Positions 1,523 to 62,346 of a DNA stretch of 64,000 bases are shown in pieces; positions within the stretch are counted from its first letter, which is position 1, and each line of letters begins with the position of its first letter. A program made the translations under genes and the position numbers. The notes below the pieces were generated by a model. The model saw nothing but the letters and a program-made list of their open reading frames with translations. It ran no database searches and had not been told where the DNA came from. This DNA is from Octopus vulgaris (Eukaryota): the NCBI GenBank assembly GCA_951406725.2, contig OX597817.1, positions 127,348,001 through 127,412,000 on the forward strand. Direction: 5' to 3'.

Positions 1523-1866
1523 CATCTGAATAATCATCATAAAGTTTTCTTTCAAAGATAAAGATCCAGTAATTTGGGAGAATATATTAGTAGGTTATAT
1601 CGACTCCCAACAGGTACTTATTTTATCTATGATTCATTTGATAATACTCAGCTAGCGCATTAATTATATTAATAAATAATTTTCATGTACATAGTACGTC
1701 ATAATTTTAGTTTATTAACTTTAAAATCATTATTTGAACGGGACCGGACAGATCAAACGCTAAGGCGAGATACGAACCCTAAACGTAAGCACATCAGAAA
1801 GCACCTTTGTATATATATGTGTGTGTGTGCGCACTTATGTGTGTATGTGTCTATCTATACATATTT

Positions 1867-1869
<3 letters not shown>

Positions 1870-1898
<29 letters not shown>

Positions 1899-1990
1899 TG
1901 TATGTATGCATGTATGTATGTACATATGTATGTATGTATGCATGTATGTATGTACATATGTACATATGTATGTATGTATGTATGTATGTA
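1870..1990. repeat. (TATG)n microsatellite
   Basis: Direct reading; source of the spurious MYVC ORFs. Confidence 0.95.
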
Positions 1991-2609
1991 GCAGAAGTAT
2001 CACTGAGTTAGAGATGCCCTCGTTTTGACCAAGCTAATTCAATACCTTATCACACTTCTCAGTTTTAGGACAGCGGTTTGTTCGATATATGAATAGAATT
2101 TGGTAGACAAAATGTGTAATATAACACACGCATACATACGCAACACACACACTCACAAAAACACAGACACAGAGACACACACAAACATGCGCATACACGC
2201 ATGCGCACACACACACAGGCACATATACATGTACGCACACGGACACACAGACACACAAGGAGAAATGCATGTCGACACGCATCTGAGAATTTACAGGTAA
2301 AAGATGGCAGCGATTCATTCAATAGTTGAGGCTAATGAAGTGAAAATTAGTCTGCATGTATTTAAATCAACAAACGACTTTATTTTTATTTCGGTTAAGT
2401 TGAATAAATCGGCCACGACAAATCAATAGCGATAACATAATTACGAATTTCAAATCACATTTAAATCTAACTATATGCATCTTAAAAACAAATAAATAAA
2501 CGCTTATCACAGAATATAGAGCGTTCTTTAGCAGCATGTGAAAATAATAGACATGAAATGAATATCTTCTTCCTATACTGCGTGTGTGCATGGCAGTATT
2601 CACATGACT

Positions 2610-2890
2610 TATCTTTTATCTCTTATCTTCTACTGGTTTCGACCGGAGGCTAAGGCCATGCTGGAGCAACATGTTTAAGTGTGACAGGTTTTCTTTCCTC
2701 TACTGTTTTTGGTGAAGTGACGATTTCGAGGTAGCTGCTCTTGTTTGTGCTTCTTGCAGCGATGTGGGTTCATCTGGTATCTCAGAAAAAAATTTCTGTC
2801 CAGACACTCTCTGAATACCTGCACATATACACCGCATATATTTCAGTCGCAGAATGATGAGTGGTTTTGGCTCCTTGAAACCCATCCTAT
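2610..2890 (-). pseudogene. Decayed 3' end of a CR1-like LINE whose tail resembles the SINE 3' tail
   Basis: Minus translation GFKEPKPLIIL...KFFSEIPDEPTSLQEAQTRAATSKSSLHQ resembles the CR1-type ORF2 C-terminus (LDKFLxxIPDEP). It is followed by GGCCATGCTGGAGCA and a (TATCTTT)-type tail as in the SINE. Confidence 0.55.
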
Positions 2891-3017
2891 ACTGTTATAA
2901 TATTGGCTCCTTATTGTAAATGGAGAATACGGGATTTTTGTAATACAGGGCCGTTTAGATCGGTAGTTCGTGTAGCTTTCAACTATAAATTTTGGAGCTT
3001 TACCTAGCTAAACCTAT

Positions 3018-3066
<49 letters not shown>

Positions 3067-3216
3067 TTAGCTGAATTAGAGGTGAAAATAACCTCTAAAG
3101 GATAGAAGTATTAAACTACGGTATATTACCTATGTTTAACGGTCATACATACGCAAGCATACTATGCTCATAAATTATGGGTAAAGACAAAGATAACATG
3201 AGTTTATCAAGAATCA

Positions 3217-3217
3217 A

Positions 3218-3313
<96 letters not shown>

Positions 3314-3342
3314 TTAGGTAGGTAGGTAGGTAGGTAGGTAGA
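3217..3342. repeat. (GATA)n followed by (GGTA)n microsatellite
   Basis: Direct reading. Confidence 0.95.
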
Positions 3343-3577
3343 AATTTCCACCACTGGCTTGATGCTCTGCGTGACCTCAGTTAGGAGCAATCATCTAGAC
3401 GACAGAGGATGAAAGTTCTCCATAACAGCATGGCATCTTTTTTTTCTGGTTCGGAATGACCTCCGTATCTATTTAACTAGTCACTTGCACAGTATTGCAA
3501 TATATGATAATATGCACGTTCAATATTGCATCCTTACTGATGTGGATTGCAAGTCACACACCGACTCTGACTTCAAT

Positions 3578-3958
<381 letters not shown>

Positions 3959-4687
3959 GCATACGAAATTATAGCAAGGGCTTGGCTAGTGCCTCACCAC
4001 GCAGTGAAAAATAGACGCCAAAAGACATTATTACCACCATAAATTCTCCGAGAAAAAATTATGTATAATAGGCTAGCAGAAGAAAGAAAATGAAGTAAAA
4101 CTTTGGTTAACCGTGTATGTGATGGTGTTTAGGGCTTAAAGTAATAAAATCTCTACCTACTGCTTTCATCAGCTTTTGTATACCAGGCTGATAACTTGGT
4201 GAAAATTATTAATGATTTTACCCTTTGTTATTATAATTTATATTTGAAAAAATATTTACCCCTTGGTCAAAACTGTATTAACTGCAGACTTGATCTTTAA
4301 CATACTCCACGTGGCTTAAGAGAAGGATATGAATTCTACTTCGCAGTATATCTCTGCGAGTCTCGACGAATATTGTCTAAGCAAAGACGTATCTCGATTA
4401 CATATCTGTGGTCACTCGTATATTTATGCCCCGGAATACCGACGCTGATGAAGGCAATACTCTCTTTTACTCTTTATACTCTTTTACTTGTTTCAGTCAT
4501 TTGACTGCGGCCATGCTGGAGCACCGCCTTTAATTGAGCAACTCGACCCCGGAACTTATTCTTTTTTTGTAAGCCCAGTACTTATTCTATCGGTCTCTTT
4601 TGCAGAACCGTTAAGTAACGGGGACATAAACACACCAGCATCGGTTGTCAAGCGATGATGGGGGGACAAACACGGACACACAAACAA

Positions 4688-4724
<37 letters not shown>

Positions 4725-4852
4725 TACGACAGGCTTCTTTCATTTTCCGTCTACCAAATCCACTCACAAGGTATTGGTCGGCCCGGGGCTATAGCAGAAG
4801 ACACTTGACCAAGATGCCACGCAGTGGGACTGAACCCGGAACCATGTGGTTG

Positions 4853-4867
4853 GTTAGCAAGCTACTT
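4853..4867. repeat. Target-site copy 1 (GTTAGCAAGCTACTT)
   Basis: Identical to 12747-12761; 10764-10779 differs by one extra A. Confidence 0.95.
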
Positions 4868-5095
4868 TCTTTCATATAATTTGCCATTTAGGCATTTACA
4901 AAGAGGGGACAAACAAGGACAGACAAATATAAAGGGTGAAGTAGCTTAACACAGTTACAATTTTCGAATGAAATTACGGATAAGATTATAAACAATGAAT
5001 TTTACGAAGGCAATGTTTAAAAATATTAATGATCATGTCGAAGGACGGACACACAGCCATCCGGGTAGAACCTTTACTTTCTGATCCGGTCACAC

Positions 5096-8000
5096 TTACC
5101 TGGTGCCAAACATACCCATCTTGTATGCCACAGGCTTCCATCTTTTCACAAACATATCTCGTGACAGACACCTCTTCTCCAGCCTGATTTTGCTACTGAG
5201 GTGGTAACTAAAAAAGTTAATCAACCCCTGGCCGGAGACAAAGTTGCCTGTCACTATACCTTTCGTACGCGTCTTCCATACTGTTTCTTTCAGTATGGCT
5301 ACTACACAGAAAAAACAAGCCTTTCTTTCCCTGTTAAGGAAAGGGGGCGGCACAATCTCGATGATAGACTCAGCCGATAGCTGTACTCTTCCCATCACTG
5401 ACAACAGTTGTTCAACAAAAGCTATCAGTCCCGATAACTCCGGACACTCCACGAATGCGTGCAAGACGGTCTCCCTATCCTGCTCACATCGCGGGCATGT
5501 CGGCGAGACGGCACTACCATGCCTTGACAGCTTGTCGCGAACAGGTAAAGCCGCACGGAAACACTGCCAGGCTAGGGATTTCTGGTAATTATCCAGATAC
5601 CCCGGCCCGAACGTCCTCCGGAACAGGTTGACCAACTGATTTTCATCGTAGCCCAGGGTCTCCCCCAAGGCGTCTTCGGACTTAATCTCCACTAACCCGC
5701 TATAGAAATCCGTGGTGGAACTCATGTTGCCGGCGTTGCCCACCCGAGATAGTAGCTGGAGCGCCTGACGGCACTCCAAATGCCATTCACTCAGTTTAGG
5801 TCTCCGCTTGATCCATGCACCGATGTCCGTTAGGGATGTTAACTGGGGATGGTAGAACCGGACGTGCGGCGACCACACCTGCTCTCCATCCAGGTAAAGC
5901 CAGAGGTGCCTCAACCTTAACGCGAGTTTTCGCATCCTCAGCCAAGGCATCCCTAGCCCACCCTTTAGCGGTTTCTGGCAGCAGACAGAGCGCTTTACAA
6001 GTAGCTTTCCTCCTTTCCACAAAAATCGGAAAAGGATTCTCTCCAACTTGTTCAGCCACAAATCGGGGCAAGGCACCACGGTCAGACGGTAGGTGATTAC
6101 TGATGCTATAAACATCTGCACCACCTCCGCCTTCCCTAGCAGGGATAACGCCCGCCCAGACCAGGTCTGGGTTAGAGCGGTCACCTTGTTGGCCACCTCA
6201 CTCCAATTTTTCTCAATCTGGAGGTCTGGCCCGAACCAGACTCCGAGCAGCTTAACAGGACCTTCCGCCCAACGCCCTACGACGTTATAGGACGGCATCG
6301 GCTTGCCCCTCCAGGTGCCGAGTTGCAAACCGACCGACTTGTCCTTGTTAACCTTTGCCCCTGCCACCGCCTCGTAGCTTTTGATGGCCTCTTCCACCAC
6401 TGGAAGCTGGCCTTCGTCTGCCACGATGATGGAGGTGTCATCCGCATACGCCGTAGCTCCTCTTCCACACCATAGATCATGCGGCGCGCCCCCTAGTGCC
6501 TCCAACTTCCGCAGCAAAGGCTCAAGAGCCAATACGTATAGGAGCGAGGACAGGGGACACCCTTGACGAACTGAACGCTCGATCGTGAACGGCTTCGAAA
6601 AGGAACCGTTCACCTTGACTACATACTCGATGTCGCTATACAAAGCAGCGATCCAACCTCGAAAGGTCGGGCCTAGGCCAGCCTCTCCGAGGACCGCCAC
6701 CAGGTACCGATGGTCAACCCTATCAAATGCTTGGACTGGTCTAAATGTACCAGTGCTTCCCCTGCGCCAGAAAGCTTCCCCACCCTCTCTAAGGAGTAGC
6801 GTATAAGGTGGAGATTGTCGTGGATCGTTCTGCCGGGGATAGCGCACGTTTGCGCTTCCCCGACAAGTTTGTCCACGACCCGCGCCAACCTTTTGCTAGC
6901 ACCTTGGCCAGAATCTTTAACTCTGTGTTTAACAGAGTTATGGGCCTGAAGTTCCCTATCTCGTCCCCCTTGTTCGGGTCCTTCCTGATCAACGTCACCG
7001 CCCCCCGGCTCGCAGACTTGGGAATTCTCCCATTCTGCTGCCAGTTGGCGTAGACGCTAGCCAGCAGGTGCCCGAACAAGTCTGGCATACTTCTATAAAA
7101 TTCATAGGGCAGACCATCGAGACCCGGCGAGTTCTCCCCGGGGCACTTGCCCAACACCTCGATTACTTCCTCGGCTGTGATTGGCCCTTCACAGCACTCA
7201 GCCTCTCGTGTCGAGAGGCGCGGGCCACCAGACAGGAAGTCCCTAAGGGCCTCACCATGATCCAGCGTCCCGCACCTCCCGAACAACTCGGCGAAGTGCT
7301 TGTGAAGTGCCTCACGCATCTCGTCCCGCTTCTTGATCGTGCATCCGTTTTCATCAACAAGAGACCCAATTGTGGCATCGTTTCCACACTGTGTTTCTAT
7401 CGTACGGGCCCATCCGGCAACATTAATTCCCTCACGGCCCAATGCTCGTACTTTAGCCCGGACTCTACATCCCTCATGTTTGGTTTTGAGGTGACGGTCT
7501 AATGCCGTTCTCGCCGCTAAAATGTGAGATGCAGAGCCCAACCTCAACGCCTCCTCTAAGTTCTTAACTAGTTGCCCTTCTATTCTATCCCTATCTAGTC
7601 TTAGTTGTTTACTAAATCTAATGGACTCGAATCGAATGGCTCTTTTGAGGGTGAACCACCACCGGTTATTAACCACGGCTCCGGTTAACGCCCTCTGCAC
7701 TAACACCTTAATCCGGCTACGGTATGCCTCGCGTGTCAAAATAGACTTGTTCAGCTTCCAGTAGCCGGTTCCTATCTTAAGTGTGCTATCTATGTCCAGT
7801 CTACACGTGACCATTCTATGGTCAGTATAGGGCACCTGGACGAGCTGTGGACAACTAAAACTAGACTTATCTCTAGTTCTTATCACTATCCTGTCTAGAT
7901 AAGACTTGAATCTTCCGTCGCCACTCATCCAGGTCCACTCTGGGACGTTCGGATGGTCAAGTCTGTAACGATCTGCTAGCTGAAACCGCTTAAGCAGATC

Positions 8001-8496
8001 CACGAGACGGGAGTTCACTTTCCTATAGATCGAGCCAACGCTATCGATGTGTACGTCAACGATAGCATTAAAGTCCCCTAATATCACTAAAGTCTTCGAC
8101 GTCACGAGAAACCCCTCTAGGCGCCGATAAAAATCAGTTTGGAAACCTCTAGCACAAGGTGCATAGAGTCCGATCAACCTGAAGGCCTTACTGCTATATA
8201 TCACATCAAGGACGACCAGCCCACCTTCTGGGTCTACATAGACTGTACTTGTCTGTAGGGCCAAGTCTTTACGGATCAGTAACACTACGCCCCCTCGCCC
8301 TCCGCGTCTGACCAGGAGACATGATTTTCTCGTAGCCATTCAGGAGAGGCGAGAAGGTTTGTAGGCTGTCCAGCTTGGTCTCTGTAGCAACCATCACATG
8401 TATATCATGTGATCTGAGGTCGTCGAGGAAACAAGCCTGCTTCAACTTCGAACTCAGACCACGCACATTTAAACAATCAAGGTTAAGCGAAGCCAT
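5096..8496 (-). CDS. Tx1-like ORF2 of element A: AP endonuclease + reverse transcriptase + C-terminal zinc finger, with three frameshifts (~8300, ~6890, ~6730)
   Basis: APE motifs LNVRGL, ATETKL, LYAP, ILGDFN, SYLDRI, YTDH; RT motifs SPGLDG, FRPITLLN, DQSKAFDRVDH, VRQGCPLS, YADD, LLGV; CPRC-X8-H-X4-C. The pieces join colinearly with the intact ORF2 of element C. Frameshifts could be decay or assembly indels. Confidence 0.92.
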
Positions 8497-8639
8497 TACA
8501 AAAAGCAAAAGTTCTACTTACATTTTGTTGGAGAGGTGGGGGCCGACCTCACCACACGTTTGTGGGCCCCTTCTTTCTCCTCTTTCTTCAGATAGTCCGG
8601 CAAGTTCGCGATATGCCGGATGGCGTTTGGGTGAAGACA

Positions 8640-8678
8640 GAAAGCGCCCGCCGACTTTTGCTTCTCTAAAACATTGTT
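8640..8678 (-). other. Conserved 39-nt post-ORF1 motif (predicted RNA stem-loop), copy in A
   Basis: 37/39 identical to 10890-10928 in element B. Confidence 0.8.
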
Positions 8679-8690
8679 CTTTTTAAAAAG

Positions 8691-8816
8691 ATTAACACAA
8701 AACGAGGTATTAAACCTCTTACAATTTTTCCAATTTTGGGCTTAGCAGTCCATTATTAATACAAAACGAGGTATTAATCCACTTACAATTTTTCAATTTT
8801 TGGACTTAAGTCCATT
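8691..8816. repeat. Two tandem ~63-bp direct repeats immediately after the ORF1 stop of element A
   Basis: ATTAAYACAAAACGAGGTATTAA...AGTCCATT at 8691-8754 and 8755-8816. Confidence 0.9.
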
Positions 8817-8817
8817 A

Positions 8818-10060
8818 CTAATAATACATATCGTCCTCGAAATAGCTTGTGCCCGCGCCCTCCACCATCAACCACGCCTCCCTCAGAACGTAGTCAAGTT
8901 CCGAGTTCGCGTCGCCCGGGACCAAGTTATAATCTTCATTGAGCTCCTTTAGCCCTAGCGTCACGTCGAACGCCACGGCCTCCACAGCTACCTGCGGAGG
9001 CCATTCGGGGTCCTGTGTGAAGGCTAAAGGTGCTCCCTTGTAGTGCTCTTCCATCACTTTTTCAATTTCTCCTCCCCTATAGAAGAGGACCAATACATTC
9101 AGTTCTTTCGTTGGCGGCACAGTTTCCGCCAACGGTATTCCTTCTCTTGTCGGTGGCACAACCCCAACCGACGTAGTTCCGCGACATTCCGGTGCCACAC
9201 TGACAGCCGGCAACGTCCCGTTTTTCTTCCTCTTTTTCTTTTTTTTTTCCCTTTTCAACTGAGGGAGGGTGCGTCTCCTCCGTGGCTGGAAGATTCGCCC
9301 TCCTCTCCTCATCCCTATTATCCTTTGGTGAGCACCCATTGTTGCTCACCTTCCTCTTTCGGCCTCTGCTTGAGGAGTCCTCTGCTTTCTCGGCCGTTAT
9401 CGTTCCCTCTTCTAGAGGGGTTTTACTTAACTGTTCCGGGATCCTATTTTGTTCCCGAGGACAGTTCTTCTTTATGTGGCCGGGCTCCAAGCACCGATGA
9501 CACTTAGGGGGGCGACCCTCAAGCATCACCGGGTACCTGCACCCGGCCATTTTCAAAAAATCTGGAAAAACCAGATTGGCTGATTGGGTCCACAGGGTCA
9601 AAATTGCTTTCGAGCCAACCCAAGCAGCCGCAGGAAGAACTTTTACATTGAGGAGCTTAGTTTCGCTGTCACCCAGACCCCGGCGGATGGTCTCCTCTAT
9701 CCACTCGGGTTCTATGTCGGGTGGCAGTCCGCAGATCCAAGCTTTCATCAATTTCTTTTTTTTGTACGTGGGCAGGAATAAGATTTCCTTACCCTCCAAG
9801 GGTTCGCTAGCAAATTTGCAAGCCTCTTCAGGGGTGTCAAACAGCAACCACACCGTTGCATATTTGACACCCCTGGAAATGAATTTAATTGTTGGCAAAT
9901 ACTCCTCCAACTTCTCAATTGCCGTCTTTTCGAATAGGGCGATGGTGTCAAGTGCCTTGGAGTAGGTTCTCAACACCACCGTCCTATCTTCACGGTCCTT
10001 CAACCACTTTTTGGGTGGTATGATTTCCCACTCCAAAACTTTGTTATTTTTCATTGCCAT
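8818..10060 (-). CDS. Tx1-like ORF1 (gag-like nucleic-acid-binding protein) of element A, one frameshift in the A-rich run near 9225-9250
   Basis: Knuckle CHRCLEPGHIKKNC (CX2CX4HX4C) and basic NLS-like runs. The C-terminal frame (GVVPP, LFYRGGEIE, WPPQVAVE) aligns with the continuous ORF1 of element B (GCVPP, LYHKGEEVE, WPPQVAAE). Confidence 0.85.
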
Positions 10061-10763
10061 GTTTTTTTAAAAATATATTCAAATTAAACTCAAAAGCAGG
10101 AAGAAAAAAGTTCAAAAGTCTAAATAAATTTGATAGATTTTTGAAAAAACAAAAAAGGAGAAAGCACAACAGAAGGGAAGAAATTAACGGAAAGTCGCAA
10201 TAAAGAAAAAACAAAAGGGGGGGGGGGTTAAATGAAGTTCAAAAGAAAGTTAATAAACAGAAAAAACACAGCAAAAATATTCTGGCCTTGCGGTACTCCC
10301 GGCCTGGGTTGAACCTGGAACGCCGCAACTGCAACACAACCTCCACAAAAATGGGTCCGAAAGGTAATCCAATAGTGGCTTATTTTTATACTTTTCTTGC
10401 GAAGTACTCTGACAAGGGAATAAATTCAACAAATCCAAACACAGCACTGGCTACCGCCAACGGTGATTTTAACAGTAACTGTATTGAATTCTGAGGATAC
10501 GCCCCTCCACTGTTTTTTTTTTTTTTTTTTTTCAATGAACACATAAACGGCAGCCGCCTAGCGCAGGCGAAATTGTCTCAGAGTTGGACACAACCTACTG
10601 AAATAATAATTGGCACGCAATAAATTATGCCCAACTCACAATAAACAAAATCACTTACCTCGACAACTTTCCGTTTTTTGGTTTTTTTTCTTTAGTTGGA
10701 CAGAGCTTGTTACTCACGTCCACTCTAGCTCAACAAGAAGCAACTGACTAACTGCGCATGTGC

Positions 10764-10779
10764 GTTAGCAAAGCTACTT
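10764..10779. repeat. Target-site copy 2 (GTTAGCAAAGCTACTT) separating elements A and B
   Basis: Target 15-mer with a single A insertion; followed by a 3'-end-like sequence matching that of A. Confidence 0.9.
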
Positions 10780-12746
10780 TATTTTATATAATTTGCCACT
10801 AGGGCAGCACACAGAGTAGTAGCTACGGGCTGGACAAGGACATTAATGGATGATGGTGGTGGTGGATGAAGATGGTGATGGGAGAAGTCGAAAGCGCCCG
10901 CCGACTTTCGCTTCTCTAAAACAATGTTTCAATAAATACATTTAATAAAATGTTCAAAAATTGTTCAACAATTCTTCTCGTCAGGTCCCCGAAGCTGTCT
11001 TGCCGCCTGCAGACAACTCTGCGACGACAAGTCGGGGCCTGCAAAGAGAAAGGTAAAGTCTTTCTTTTCAAAGGTCTCTGCGACCCTTGACAAAGTATCT
11101 TCTGTTACTTTTTCCGCAGCTACCTGCGGAGGCCATAACGGACTCCTTGAGCCGACCGTGTCCTTACGCTCTCGGTCACCCAAGCCATTCAAGAATCTTT
11201 CAACCTCCTCTCCCTTGTGGTAAAGGAGGAGAAGCATCTCCTCTTCACAGGGAGGGACCTCACACTCCTCCGTCGGTGGCACACTTCCCACTGGCGGAGC
11301 CTTGTCCGCGGGTGGCACACATCCCACCCGCGGCTCCGTCGGCGACACAGAAACGTCAGTCGTCCGACCTCTCCTTTTTCTCCTCCTTCTTTTGGGGGAG
11401 ACTGCTGACCCAGGGGACTCCGTCACCAGACACGGGGGATTGCTATCCCCCTTCGCCCCCTGAGCGTTCTTTGGCGGGCAACCATTGTTGCTCGCCTTTC
11501 TCTTTCTTTTCGTGGAGGCAACCTCCTCCACGACTTCCATCGTCTCCCCCTCCAATGAGGGGGCGGTGGGCGCCTTTTCCCCTCTCTGCTCCGGGGCACC
11601 ACTACGGCCCCTGGGACAATTCTTCCTGATATGTCCGGGCTTCAGGCACAGGTGACACTTGGGGGGGCGACCCTCGAGTATCACCGGGTACCTGTGCCCA
11701 GCCATTCTCAGGAAGTCCGGGAATTTCATTTCCCCCACGGCTACCGGTGTCCACAGGGTCAAAGTTGCCCTCGACCCCTGCCAGGCGACCGCAGGAGCCA
11801 CCTTCACACTTAGCAGTCTGGGTCCGCTATCCCCCAGGCCTCGCCGGATGGTCTTTTCGATCCATTCCGCCTCCGTGCCCGGGGGCAGCCCACACACCCA
11901 GGCTCTTTTCACTTTTCTGCCACAATACGAGGGGAGGAACAAAATTTCCTCTCCCTCCAGTGGCTCGCTAGCAAATCTGCTAGCTTCCTCGGGGGTACCA
12001 AATAGCAACCAGACCGTTGCAAATTTGCTCCCCCGAGAAATAAATTTTATAGTTGGCAGGTAGTCCCCCAACTCTTTCTCTATAGTATTCTTGTCGAAGA
12101 GGGCAATGGCTCCACGCGACCTAGAATAGGTTCGTAGGACACCGTCCTCTTCTCAAGACTTTCAATCCACTGCTTTGGTGGGACGACCTCCCATTCCAAA
12201 GCGGTGGTTTCTTTTGTTGCCATGTTTTTTTTGTTTTTTTATTAAATAAATGTATTTAGAATAAAACTAAAAAACGAGAAGAAAAGGAAATCCGAAGAAT
12301 GTCACAATGAAAAACGGAGAGAGTCAAATAAAGTTGAAAAGAAAGTCAAATAAAGTTAAAAAGAAAGTCAAAAACACAGCAAAATCCTTTTGGCCATTTG
12401 GTACTCCCGGCCTAAATCGAACCAGGATCGCACAGCTCCCACAAAAATTGGTGTAAAATTGGTAGTTCTTCACAGCACCATACAATTTTCACAATTCGAA
12501 GACGGATACGCCCCCCAAAATTTTCTCAGCGAGAAAAATATATCTGCCACATGTCGGCAGAATCAGAATTCTGAATCCAGTAGGACTTTCTGCATGTAAA
12601 AAATAATTCTCAACAAAAACTCCCACTGGACCCAGAAAACAGAATCTTACCTTACATGGGGCTTCCAAAGTTTCAATTCAAGACGGCTTCAAAAGCACAT
12701 CTTCACTGCTTCAGTAGCAAACACAACATTGACTCGCACATGCGCA
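10780..12746 (-). mobile_element. ORF1-only (non-autonomous, HAL1-like architecture) Tx1-related retroelement, element B
   Basis: Has its own 5' UTR, an ORF1 paralogue and a ~185-nt 3' UTR ending like A (TGCC..GGCAAATTATAT-A-rich). No EN/RT sequence; bounded by target copies 2 and 3. Confidence 0.85.
10965..12223 (-). CDS. ORF1 of element B (gag-like, CCHC knuckle), one frameshift near 12140
   Basis: ATG at 12223 gives MATKETTALEWEVVPPKQW (cf. A: MAMKNNKVLEWEIIPPKKW), then LRTYS..YLPTIKFISRG..EGRPPKCHLCLKPGHIRKNC; stop at 10965. Confidence 0.85.
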
Positions 12747-12761
12747 GTTAGCAAGCTACTT
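12747..12761. repeat. Target-site copy 3 (GTTAGCAAGCTACTT)
   Basis: Identical to 4853-4867; the SINE head resumes immediately after. Confidence 0.95.
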
Positions 12762-12887
12762 ACCACACAGCCACTCCTGCGCCTATAGGTAATGTTTTTA
12801 TTACTTTTAGCCCGAAACATGATCTTGTACACGGTTAACCAAAGTTTTAAATCACTTTCTTTCTTCTGCTAGCCTATTATGTAGTGT

Positions 12888-14867: not shown

Positions 14868-15045
14868 GTGGGTGAACTGAGCCGTGACGTCCTTCTCCCA
14901 ACTCCACTTCCCAGTGGAAACGCGCGGGCGGGCAGCTGAAGGCCTGGGTTACGACGATCAAGGAGGACCTCCCCGTACTCACGGGACCGCAGGTGGTCGG
15001 CCTGCGCCGATGGAACCGTAACTGGCTCGCTATCTCCAGTGAACA
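14868..15045 (+). pseudogene. RTE-clade LINE ORF C-terminal fragment
   Basis: Frameshifted translation GELSRDVLLPTPLPS..RAG.QLKAWVTTIKEDLPVLTGPQVVGLRRWNRNWLAISSE resembles RTE C-termini; GC-rich island. Confidence 0.65.
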
Positions 15046-15195
15046 TAAGAATATTAACATGCATGCGCCCGCATTTTTCTTTGTAATTATATATCAGTAT
15101 GCTTGCCTAATCAATGAGCTCATTGATTAGGCAAGCATAATGATATATAATTACAAAGAAAAATGCGGGCGCATGCATGTTAATATTCTTATGTT
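15042..15195. repeat. 154-bp spacerless palindrome (one mismatch)
   Basis: Centre GAG|CTC at 15118/15119; the only mismatch is 15097/15140. Confidence 0.95.
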
Positions 15196-48522: not shown

Positions 48523-50849
48523 ATGTTTCTTTATTAGCCACACAGGGCTGCACACAGATAGAACAAATTACAAGGTAGAGCTTTTCTTTTGAAGGTTTAA
48601 AAAAAAAAAAAAAAAAAAAAAAGGAAGGGGGAGTTTCGATCAAAAGGGATCGTAAAAGGAGAGAAAGAGGACAAAAAAGGGGGGGTTAAGAAAAAGGGGG
48701 AGAGAAAAAAAAAAAAAAAAAAAAAATTGATCAATAGGGATCGTTATCACAGAAATGTCAATATGAAGTGTAAAGGGGAGGACAGGTGAGGTTTACCCGT
48801 GGAAAGAAAAGCCTACGGAAAAGACCACGGTAACCTCGGTCAATGAAGTCACATTTTATATTTCTTTTTTTTTTTTTTTGCAAATAAGCAACTCTCTGTT
48901 TTCGATTTCTGGGTTCATAGGACTATGCTCAAGGTGGCTTCGTCATTCATACGTGCCATTCTTGCTACATTCACCCATCTTTTTTTAAAACATTCGCTAG
49001 ACAAAACTTGCCTCTCTACTCTCACTTTCCTTTTCAAGTGGTACTTGAAGAAGTTGATGAGAGATTGACCAGAGAGGAAAGTGTTTGTCTCCAATCCTTT
49101 CAGACGCGTCCACCAGATACATTCCTTCGCCATAGCCACAAGGATGATGAAAATAGCTCTTCCTTCCCGTTTGAAGGAAGGAGGCGTGACAATATTGACG
49201 ATAGACTCAGCTGATAAACCGACTCGTCCTACACGTGACAGCAGTTGTTCGACATAAGCCCACAGGTCGGAAATTGTTGGACACTGAACGAGTGCGTGCA
49301 GAACGGTTTCGTCGCTCTGACCGCATCTCGGGCAGGTCGGCCCCGTGTTTCTCGAGCCGTGTCTGTAGAGCTTATCCCGAACGGGTAGCGCTTCTCGGTA
49401 GCACTGCCAGGCCAGGGATCTCTGGAAGTTGTCCATGGGCCCTGGCCCGAAAGTCGTCCTGAACAGGCGGGTCAGGTACTCCTCGTCGACGTCCAGGTTC
49501 GCCCCGAGCTCGTCGTCGTACCTCCCCTCCACTAAACCCCTATAGAATGCTTTGGTTGTGTTGAAGTCACTTAAGGTCGACCCAGGACGGCAGAGTTGCT
49601 TGAGAGCAACGCGACACTCGCGGTGCCATTCGCCCTTCCTCGGCCTCTTTTTGATCCACGACTGCAGTTCGGTCATGGAGACGAGCTGCGGGAAAGCGTG
49701 CCTCACAAACGGCGACCACACCTGTTCACCGTCGTCTACATAGAGCCAGAGATGCCGCAGTCTCAGCGCGTGTCTGCGCATCATCAACCACGGCATGCCC
49801 AGCCCTCCTTTTAACGGGTGTTGACAGCAAATGGATCGCCTGACCATCGGGACGCATCCTTTCCACAAGAAGCGAAAGAGGATGCGTTGTAGTTTGGTGA
49901 TGGTAGGGTCGGGACAAGGTACGACGGTCAGGCGGTAGTAGATGACGGACGCGATGTACGTGTTCGCCACCTCCGCTCGACCTTTTAGGGACAGTTTCCT
50001 CTCGGCCCATTGCCGGGCGAGAGTGACCACCCTACTCGTTATCTCGTTCCAGTTCTTCTCCACTTGGAGGTCCGGACCAAACCAGACCCCGAGCAACTCA
50101 ACCGGGCCGTCGGTCCAGCGTCCCACGACGGAGGCGCTGGTGGACGGCATGGGCTTGCTTCTCCAGGTGCCTAGTCGCAAGCCCACTGACTTTTCCCGGT
50201 TGATTTTCGCTCCTGTCACCGCTTCGTAGTTTTTCAGTGTCTCGCCGACCAGCTCGATGTGCTCGTGGCTAGACACTATGACGGTGACGTCGTCCGCGTA
50301 TGCAGACACGCTCGTCCCGTATCCCAATTCTCGCGGGATGCCCCTTAGAGTCGCCAGCTTCCGCAGTAGTGGCTCAAGAGTCAATACGTATAGAAGCGCC
50401 GAGAGGGGGCATCCCTGACGGACCGAACGTGCAATGTCGAAAGGTCTCGATAGATGTCCATTTACGCGAATTACCGAACGGATGCCTCTGTACAAGGCAG
50501 CTATCCATCCGCGGAAAACGGGACCGAAACCAGCCGCTCTCAGGACTGCCCCCAAGTATCGATGGTCTACCCTATCAAAGGCTTTCGATTGATCCAAGTT
50601 GATCAGGGCCCCACCCATGCCAGGTTCGTTAACTACCCTGTCTATGATGTAGCGCATCAGATGGAGGTTGTCATGGATGGTCCGGCCTGGCACGGCGCAT
50701 GTTTGCGCCTTGTCGACCAGTTTCTCGATGACAAGCGCCAACCTCTTGGCTAGCACCTTGGCCAAAATTTTCAAGTCTGCATTAAGCAGAGTGATGGGCC
50801 TAAAGTTATCTATTACATTTCCCTTGTTTAGATCTTTCTTCAGCAGTGA
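48523..50849 (-). mobile_element. 5'-truncated Tx1-clade retrotransposon, element C, inserted in (GATA)n
   Basis: Uninterrupted RT-CCHC frame, ~390-nt 3' UTR ending AGCC-CTGTGT-GGCT-AATAAAG; GATA/GACA repeats on both flanks. Confidence 0.92.
48915..50849 (-). CDS. ORF2 of element C (RT + C-terminal zinc finger; endonuclease lost by 5' truncation)
   Basis: LLKKDLNKG..FRPITLLN..DQSKAFDRVDH..RQGCPLS..YADD..LLGVWFG..CPRC-X8-H-X4-C with no stop or frameshift; clearly homologous to but distinct from ORF2 of A. Confidence 0.9.
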   Translation of the reverse strand, partial: SLLKKDLNKGNVIDNFRPITLLNADLKILAKVLAKRLALVIEKLVDKAQTCAVPGRTIHDNLHLMRYIIDRVVNEPGMGGALINLDQSKAFDRVDHRYLGAVLRAAGFGPVFRGWIAALYRGIRSVIRVNGHLSRPFDIARSVRQGCPLSALLYVLTLEPLLRKLATLRGIPRELGYGTSVSAYADDVTVIVSSHEHIELVGETLKNYEAVTGAKINREKSVGLRLGTWRSKPMPSTSASVVGRWTDGPVELLGVWFGPDLQVEKNWNEITSRVVTLARQWAERKLSLKGRAEVANTYIASVIYYRLTVVPCPDPTITKLQRILFRFLWKGCVPMVRRSICCQHPLKGGLGMPWLMMRRHALRLRHLWLYVDDGEQVWSPFVRHAFPQLVSMTELQSWIKKRPRKGEWHRECRVALKQLCRPGSTLSDFNTTKAFYRGLVEGRYDDELGANLDVDEEYLTRLFRTTFGPGPMDNFQRSLAWQCYREALPVRDKLYRHGSRNTGPTCPRCGQSDETVLHALVQCPTISDLWAYVEQLLSRVGRVGLSAESIVNIVTPPSFKREGRAIFIILVAMAKECIWWTRLKGLETNTFLSGQSLINFFKYHLKRKVRVERQVLSSECFKKRWVNVARMARMNDEATLSIVL

Positions 50850-50856
50850 TAGATAA

Positions 50857-61747: not shown

Positions 61748-61781
<34 letters not shown>

Positions 61782-61783
<2 letters not shown>

Positions 61784-62346
61784 CTTATAATTAAGGGCTA
61801 AAGAGGGTTATTCTAAAGCCAATACACTGATTTATCCACTTATAATCCACTTGTTACAGGAAAATTGAACTGAAAGCGGGCAACTATCCTTTAGAAAATT
61901 TAAATTTCGTTATCTCTATATTGAATCAATTTCGGAATTAATCCTATAAAGGATACATTCTTCTTCAGTATAAATGATATACTTAAATGTAGTTATGTTT
62001 TTAGCTTCTGCTTTTTCCATGATCACGTGTGAGTATTTTATTTATATTCCCTCGAAAGCTCTACTGAAGAAGAATGTATCCTTTATAGGATTAATTCCGA
62101 AATTGATTCAATATAGAGATAACGAAATTTAAATTTTCTAAAGGTTAGTTGCCCGCTTTCAGTTCAATTTTCCTGTAACAAGTGGATTATAAGTGGATAA
62201 ATCAGTGTATTGGCTTTAGAATAACCCTCTTTAGCCCTTAATTATAAGATGTTTATACTTCAACCGTAAAGGTCTTTTTAATATACTGCCACGCTTTTTG
62301 ATGGAATCCTTTTCTGTAGAGAAAGGGACTTCATCCTATATTGTTA

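Follow-up and report, generated by a model that had tools for sequence, protein, structure and literature searches.

An ORF1-only retrotransposon at a fixed site in an octopus SINE head, likely dependent on the ORF2 protein of a co-resident autonomous family

The stretch of DNA analysed here, referred to as the window, comprises 64,000 nucleotides of the Octopus vulgaris genome. The locus of interest lies on its minus strand, where the order is: 5' head of a host SINE, target, element B, target, a segment called 'A' (10763-4868), target and the remainder of the SINE. The 5' half of the SINE head, assigned by sequence and carrying an A-box-like motif, occupies 12762..12783. It is followed by target copy 1 (15 bp, 12747..12761), by the ORF1-only element B (1967 nt, 10780..12746) and by target copy 2 (16 bp, 10764..10779), which separates B from A1. 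A1 belongs to a second ORF1-only family (8633..10763); it lacks its last 111 nt here, matches a complete A1 copy at 97.4% and has an ORF1 with one frameshift (10060 to 8818). Joined to it is C, a 5'-truncated autonomous element (4868..8633, positions 1675-5439 of 5439) that matches a full C copy at 98.7%. The C segment contains the end of an ORF1, then a frameshifted ORF2 (8496 to 5096) with APE, RT and zf-RVT domains, and then a 3'UTR with an exact 9-nt reverse complement of the target core at 4939..4947. Target copy 3 (15 bp, 4853..4867) leads into the 3' part of the SINE, with a B-box-like motif and the body (4727..4852). The family letters are our own labels.

The limits of B are exactly those of the original prediction, 12746 to 10780 on the minus strand, and the same ends recur in register elsewhere in the genome. 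Its only coding region is ORF1 (10981..12223, minus strand), with a predicted RRM-RRM-CCHC arrangement, then a basic Pro-rich region and a conserved C-terminal block. As predicted, ORF2 is missing: no match to EN or RT was found in any B copy. An almost intact ORF1 of about 420 codons had also been described, and this holds for its length, as open copies have 414-415 codons. The window copy itself is broken early because, compared to an open copy, 1 nt is missing near 12139 (after codon 28) and 4 nt are missing towards the end, near 10996. The 3' end comprises a module common to the ORF1-only families (10780..10925; 397 exact copies of its 25-nt core in the genome), a 3'UTR motif that is the reverse complement of seven of the nine target-core bases (10818..10824) and a predicted terminal 4-bp hairpin, TGCC-n5-GGCA (10794..10806), which reads TGTC-n-GACA in a family called H. 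The terminus is a short A-rich tail, joined to the fixed target with no poly(A) run.

Some further features of the window copy can be added. It is a mosaic of two B haplotype groups, with a 5' half like that of an array at C1:223.7M and a 3' half like that at C5:78.7M, and several other B copies are mosaic as well. Consensus-like splice donors lie in the 5'UTRs of B (~12645-12655) and A1 (~10652-10662, both minus strand), and another near base 60 of C. Splicing from these GT sites to the shared block is unsupported, because this block is 3'UTR and because a contig of one sequencing run (X1) runs unskipped through the B 5'UTR. Three contigs of X1, which is RNA only by guess, span B end to end (10764 to 12746). 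A1 and most of C have little or no cover in this run; contig depth cannot rank elements, and such a hole proves nothing. In runs X11 and X12, whose labels name two other organisms, all 30 bins are covered (at least 88%). None of this coverage is a demonstration of transcription.

The genome searched comprised 2.8 Gb in 227 contigs. Among 37 scored candidates of a DNA search, 21 matched B in full length at 92-100%. Exact patterns yielded 39 B-type 5' junctions genome-wide and 75 copies of a 3'-end motif common to B and E-type elements, with 0 hits for both reversed-pattern controls. Altogether, 38 full-length copies were assembled at 21 loci, none with an ORF2; a copy with an internal deletion and an A1 body carrying a B 5'UTR were left out of this set, and one copy with a variant junction was included. 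Target copies stand on both sides of each, and the insertions are interstitial, within SINEs on many contigs, and not at telomere ends. ORF1 is open in five of the 38 copies. Within B, dN/dS was 0.36 for shared changes and 0.62 for singletons, a difference that is not significant (Fisher p 0.17). B is thus, as originally proposed, an ORF1-only element of long standing, present in many copies that have target duplications of their own.

Regarding the host repeat, the SINE head shows A- and B-box-like motifs, from which we infer a tRNA origin; ARAGORN called 0 genes, and an Rfam search returned no tRNA match and nothing at gathering score. The repeat presumably resembles published octopus SINEs. 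The target flanking B measures 15-16 bp within this head, and at least 68,904 exact, uninterrupted copies of its core remain empty in the genome, together with 4,039 copies of a variant core. Rare target variants were duplicated on both sides at three insertions of B or related ORF1-only families, which we call the guild: C7:113.3M (in all three copies), C1:13.7M and L235. Two of these cases came from 93 insertions in which both SINE halves were available and one from later loci, and they identify the flanking copies as true target duplications. In many insertions, the two target copies are not alike, the upstream one deviating from its downstream counterpart in a manner typical of the family, and one subfamily has an identical shortened upstream copy in 10 listed cases, a pattern which suggests that the RNA of B and its relatives may begin within the upstream target copy. 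In three places (L147, L161 and L027), guild 3' ends pass into non-SINE sequence after no more than AAAG or AAAGTAG; these are rare off-target, 5'-truncated insertions.

The ORF1 protein of B is predicted to bind RNA. An AlphaFold model of residues 1-215 (pLDDT 90.5) contains two RRM-like domains and no N-terminal coiled coil. Residues 15-102 matched the La RRM (Z 8.7, rmsd 2.4, 79 aligned) and residues 103-187 matched Prp24 (Z 8.0, rmsd 2.4, 72 aligned). This fold assignment comes from VIA-align alone, where the top Z of 8.7 is near background, yet RRMs dominate the match list. A CCHC knuckle lies C-terminal to the second RRM-like domain, and sequence searches of Pfam and PDB recovered the zinc knuckle only. 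The earlier term 'gag-like' therefore fits the knuckle only, and the predicted fold is one of two RRMs. Only one close protein relative was found, a named protein of Octopus sinensis with 65% identity; of the weaker relatives examined, several come from octopods as well. B and A1 ORF1s are 68% identical in amino acids over the N-terminal 203 codons and 33% over the C-terminal part, and B and C ORF1s are 28% identical. The observation that the ORF1 proteins of B and 'A' align throughout and differ widely was thus correct, with the correction that the 'A' ORF1 is that of A1, another ORF1-only family.

Several results show that the window's 'A' is a single-copy chimera, in which A1 is joined at 8633 to a 5'-truncated C. 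With 7600-8700 of the window as query, 39 of the 40 scored matches start only at 8633. In each of the 29 other ORF2-bearing loci that were fetched, similarity to the window is limited to the part from 8633 down, and the region further 5' differs and encodes another ORF1. The junction itself, with 1-nt microhomology, occurs once in the genome as an exact pattern, and complete A1 copies extend 111 nt past this point, with their own tail and target copy. An autonomous two-ORF element 'A', the partner that had been proposed for B, is thereby ruled out. Likewise, the block at 8628-8678, which resembles an inter-ORF region common to A and B, is in fact the 3'UTR module that the ORF1-only families share. 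The chimera could be explained by a template switch, or equally by deletion within a tandem of A1 and C. For annotators, this is a warning that one locus can pass for a two-ORF LINE and yet be a chimera. A1 proper is a 2.23-kb ORF1-only family with 414 codons in open copies; a 64-bp tandem duplication in its 3'UTR (8691-8823 in the window) varies among A1 copies.

Family C is 5.44 kb long, with a 467-codon ORF1 and an APE-RT-zf ORF2 (PF03372, PF00078, PF13966), for which the best solved match is human L1 ORF2p (E 8.5e-67), with R2 at 4.8e-20. It is apparently an autonomous L1/Tx1-type family, where the Tx1 label comes from architecture and from targeting, C having a target preference within a repeat, the SINE; no named Tx1 reference is among the 120 homologues listed. 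The family is young, with 98-99% identity among 40 scored copies, and exact 3' ends number 110. No fully open ORF2 was present in the 8 copies of C and of G, a second autonomous family at the same SINE target, that were inspected. Elsewhere in the window (~48530-50850, minus strand), a 5'-truncated relative of C (67% at the nucleotide level) with an open RT-zf frame lies in a (GATA)n microsatellite; it has a similar terminal hairpin and belongs to the same superfamily with a different target.

To describe what else occupies the target, units were defined by cutting fetched loci at target copies (82 initially, more from later loci). Apart from C and G, the ORF1-only types B, A1, E/F/I, H/J, K and M were found, each 2.0-2.4 kb. 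In the ORF1 tree, a single clade (100/100) unites B, A1, E, I, K, H, M and the O. sinensis protein and excludes C, G and D; long branches meet at its base. N-domain identity is 57-94% among guild members and 24-30% against C and G. The guild motif in ORF1 has 322 exact matches genome-wide. Of these, 119 copies were read, including all 75 on contigs C1-C3, a census by exact motifs that misses diverged copies. In 114 of the 119, the element ends in tail and target within 1.5 kb; the other five are the window chimera, one E copy with a nested foreign element, and three disrupted copies with no same-strand EN/RT. No native ORF2 carrier is thus among the 119, and in 40 further loci chosen by the 3' module no ORF2 lies between ORF1 and the module. 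In one respect, the original interpretation was understated: the ORF1-only state is a property of a whole old clade and not of B alone, and the candidate ORF2 donor is far more distant than had been supposed.

The guild ORF1s are under purifying selection. As had been suggested, dN/dS was computed for B against A1, and in the N-domain it is 0.11 (dS ~1.9, near saturation). Against closer ORF1-only subfamilies, the B N-domain gives 0.09-0.20 at dS 0.14-0.24, and E against E2 gives 0.09. All computable guild pairs fall at 0.07-0.23, with dS often >1, and closer guild pairs at 0.09-0.25 for dS 0.14-0.29. The C-terminal half is less constrained, with 0.40-0.66.

The composition of the guild is further complicated by exchanges of 5'UTRs and C-termini between families, which include the 5' end of the autonomous G. 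At L122, L141, L233, L234, L235, L123, L139, L024 and L028, these swaps comprise B 5'UTRs on A1 bodies, a G-type 5'UTR on a B-type ORF1 with an A1 tail, and A1/E 5'UTRs on B bodies. An apparent autonomous element with a guild ORF1 (C7:13.49M) was rejected, as an E copy is interrupted there by a foreign Tx1-type element that brings an ORF1 of its own. The surrounding cluster (C7:13478000-13508000; L082, L083, L232) is large; it contains ORF1-only units and an autonomous G at the SINE target, and the E copy hosts other autonomous Tx1-type elements, which have ORF1s of their own. A further type, D, is ORF1-only, 1.5 kb long and unrelated to the guild, and its ORF1 is 39% identical to that of C; it has probably lost ORF2 separately. 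D copies at L094/L095 (C10:101177587-101179092), L204, L211 and L226 have an open 408-codon ORF1 that is closer to C than to B. D represents a second, independent ORF1-only lineage, which occurs at both target variants and carries no anti-target motif.

Between B and C, nucleotide similarity is confined to the last 27 nt (85%, E 0.005, blastn), with none to C or G beyond it; the final 27-60 nt are similar and the target is the same. That B shares its target and 3' end with a family encoding EN/RT, as the original prediction held, is thus correct for C. A 4-bp hairpin lies 14-16 nt from the end, with the stem TGCC/GGCA in most ends counted. C shares this B stem, and a double change to TGTC/GACA in 8 ends marks family H. 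Folding of whole tails was no better than in shuffles (z -1.1 for B, -0.66 for C and -0.43 for A1). The 3'UTR motif complementary to the target covers 9/9 core bases in C (shuffle p 0.001), 7 in B (0.013), 7 in E (0.009), 6 in A1 (0.08) and, against its own variant target, 8 in K (0.003). Over 171 ends, motif and target state were matched in 86 + 13 cases and mismatched in 2, in a tally without D, G, H or ends with another form of the motif, the main A1 form among them; as the ends are non-independent, this amounts to only about two lineage-level contrasts, the C lineage and the guild. Older C-like copies at the variant target carry the variant motif, and the contrasts in the C lineage and in the guild lie at different, non-homologous UTR positions. 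A strict need for the motif seems to be counted against by D and G, which are without it, D occurring at both targets, and by the microsatellite-inserted C relative, which has a similar word.

Taken together, we consider it likely that B, a multicopy ORF1-only retrotransposon at a fixed site in the SINE head, borrows the ORF2p (EN/RT) of the co-resident family C. The original observation is thus partly confirmed and its interpretation partly supported, with the partner misidentified. On the observed anatomy, copies, target duplications, selection and shared target, we infer the enzymatic steps and the donor's identity as follows. B RNA would be translated and coated in cis by its own ORF1p, and the ORF2p of C would bind the terminal hairpin and tail of B in trans. 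This ORF2p would nick the target core and reverse-transcribe from the 3' end of B, and a cut of the top strand ~9-15 nt downstream would lead to duplication of the target. If the RNA often begins inside the upstream target copy, the 5' junction could be RNA-templated, and a rebuilt 5' junction could be re-used, so that elements would stack 5'-ward. At the window locus, the A1/C chimera would have come first, by a template switch from C RNA to A1 RNA or by a tandem deletion, and B would then have inserted at its 5' junction.

Another ORF2 donor is improbable, and it is the rival explanation that survives best. The donor could be G or a further Tx1-type family, or else a B-clade autonomous element that escaped notice or was lost recently, with the half elements arising separately as in the case of HAL1. 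G inserts at this target too and has 5'UTR sequence in common with some of the ORF1-only subfamilies, further autonomous Tx1-type families exist, including the nested one, HAL1 elements arose repeatedly (PMC5753468), and the ORF1 census covers 119 copies only. However, neither these 119 copies nor the 40 loci chosen by the module contain a native ORF2, it is C that shares the hairpin stem and the anti-target motif of B, while G is without the motif, and the young family that adjoins B is C.

The distribution of B along the genome bears on a second alternative, that B spreads mostly by tandem duplication at the DNA level or by read-through co-mobilisation with a downstream element. At 18 of the 21 loci, B is stacked 5' of another element, which is of A1 type at 11, C at 6 and D at 1, in runs of up to 7. 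By chance, well under one such case would be expected in 21 loci, since a few hundred to perhaps a thousand occupied sites stand against >70,000 empty ones. Among 80 guild-wide motif loci, a rough classifier flagged possible stacking in no more than 9, found the two SINE halves adjacent in 46 and left the rest unclear. Mean divergence between B copies is 0.66% within arrays and 1.76% between loci, and in some arrays (C1:223.7M, C5:78.7M) adjacent copies are identical, or two kinds alternate like a dimer that has been duplicated. This points to local duplication as well, which would account for part of the long arrays only. Against this as the main route, B lies alone between SINE halves at 3 of the 21 loci, and its downstream partners vary. 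Haplotypes of B and A1 are discordant in 9 pairs (Mantel rho -0.03, p 0.49), which means that the pairs were assembled on site; the paired A1 copies often have a solo A1 copy as nearest relative and vary independently of B. In addition, an extra-T target variant follows the locus and not the B haplotype, and runs 5'-ward at C5:78.7M and C10:101.18M, which favours repeated insertion at the 5' junction. The alternative is thus largely refuted by the haplotype discordance and is very improbable as a general account. End-to-end template jumping is likewise not favoured for the arrays, where internal target copies follow the locus (C7:113.3M, C5:78.7M, C10:101.18M). B prefers occupied target sites.

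The proposal that A+B moves as one 7.9-kb element with two ORF1s draws on the adjacency in the window and on the B-A1 neighbours at 11 loci, and has next to no probability left, because the A1/C junction is single-copy, a target copy lies between B and A1, the pairs are discordant and the other B-A1 pairs have no ORF2. Nor does B always occur upstream of 'A', given the solo copies and the C and D neighbours. A one-off internal deletion of an autonomous element would account for the absence of ORF2 and nothing else, and is practically discounted by the 38 full-length copies, by the diverged ORF1-only clade and by the restriction of similarity with C to the last 27 nt; no autonomous element nearly identical to B was found.

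Beyond the borrowing of ORF2p from C, a more tentative reading, which we regard as doubtful, would see the SINE head as a niche of a few ORF2 donors and an old ORF1-only guild, in which the RNA cargo and the B ORF1p aid site choice. Here, the 3'UTR complement would pair with the target core or with the read-through copy of the core, the motif would have switched in both the C and the ORF1-only lineages when the SINE core changed, and the ORF1p of B would home on sites already occupied. If true, this would mean RNA-assisted target choice in an APE-type LINE, with ORF1 as a separable targeting module. In the case of SART1, a 3'UTR sequence is reported to pair with the bottom strand (PMC7265360), whereas the octopus motif could pair with the top strand or with RNA from read-through.

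Several known systems can be compared to B. ORF1-present non-autonomous LINEs are listed for the Jockey, L1 and CR1 clades (PMC5786205; PMC5753468; PMC5537684), and B shows the features of this class, being ORF1-only and multicopy with a 3' end shared with an autonomous LINE, although at 27 nt this end is short. Ag-Sponge, of the CR1 clade, is like B by class only (PMC5786205). Mammalian HAL1 is also a non-autonomous LINE derivative encoding ORF1p only; it comes from the L1 clade, and no target specificity is described in the text consulted (PMC5753468, PMC5786205). B, unlike HAL1, is sequence-specific, has no poly(A) run and a predicted RRM-RRM-CCHC ORF1, and is a member of a radiation of families far from any partner ORF1. 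For HAL1, the ORF1p is of the L1 type, with coiled coil, RRM and CTD, and the element has a poly(A) tail and dispersed insertion.

HeT-A of Drosophila, with TART and TAHRE, is like B in being ORF1/Gag-only, long-lived and under negative selection, and in forming head-to-tail arrays with autonomous partners from which RT is borrowed by inference (PMC5537684). HeT-A Gag directs targeting; the element belongs to the Jockey clade, sits at chromosome ends and has a host function, whereas B inserts internally into SINEs with target duplication. Also, TAHRE has a HeT-A-like Gag (PMC5537684), whereas no autonomous element with a B-like ORF1 was found. TRE5-A.2 of Dictyostelium is ORF1-only with targeting associated with Pol III genes; it is mobilised in trans by the ORF2p of TRE5-A.1, its ORF1p has a strong cis preference and its 3' structure is essential (PMC3159450). 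It is the tested precedent for the trans-mobilisation proposed for B, with a cis-acting ORF1. In contrast to B, TRE5-A.2 arose from its partner by deletion, and its insertion ~50 bp upstream of tRNA genes goes through TFIIIB (PMC3159450); B can hardly be aligned with C, and its insertion site is a fixed base within the SINE.

Tx1 elements such as Tx1L/Tx1D and Tx1-Mar with SINEU target transposons, share the target with passengers and form tandem insertions that sandwich one target duplication (PMC4494074). Their targets are DNA transposons and their passengers are non-coding (PMC4494074), whereas the octopus passengers carry an ORF1 and occupy a SINE head. R1 of Drosophila rDNA is APE-type and site-specific, which is the partner type, and forms arrays by inserting into the target duplication at the 5' end of a resident copy; its transcripts can carry flanking target sequence, comparable to the upstream copies of the guild (PMC2718515). 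Unlike B, it is autonomous and has a small number of targets (PMC2718515). For the octopus SINE, tens of thousands of empty targets remain, unlike for R1, so the stacking of B needs a further cause.

A 2026 repeat annotation of Octopus vulgaris reports 13 recently active L1-Tx1 families, and its main text, as far as consulted, has no match for non-autonomous, ORF1, nested or target (PMC13282606). In the literature searched, no description of an ORF1-only or SINE-targeted Tx1-type family was found; Repbase/Dfam or the supplement of PMC13282606 may already contain them. ORF1-only LINEs as such are known already, and it is the SINE-targeted Tx1-type guild of ORF1-only families that was not found described. 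Here, evolution has split ORF1 from ORF2 and yet kept ORF1 under purifying selection in several families at one target. To our knowledge, ORF1p is the least understood LINE protein. The guild is therefore a natural set for asking why a passenger keeps ORF1, be it for cis packaging, competition for ORF2p or site choice. It also bears on whether ORF1p and ORF2p must match, as the ORF1s of the donors are only 24-30% identical, and it lets the contribution of an RNA motif to target recognition be examined in an APE-type element.

Two further structures lie in the window, both apart from the locus. A near-perfect palindrome of ~150 bp at ~15025-15195 is fold-back or MITE-like, and an inverted repeat at 61775-62257, with 196-nt arms that are 98% complementary and a 91-nt spacer, is MITE-like as well.
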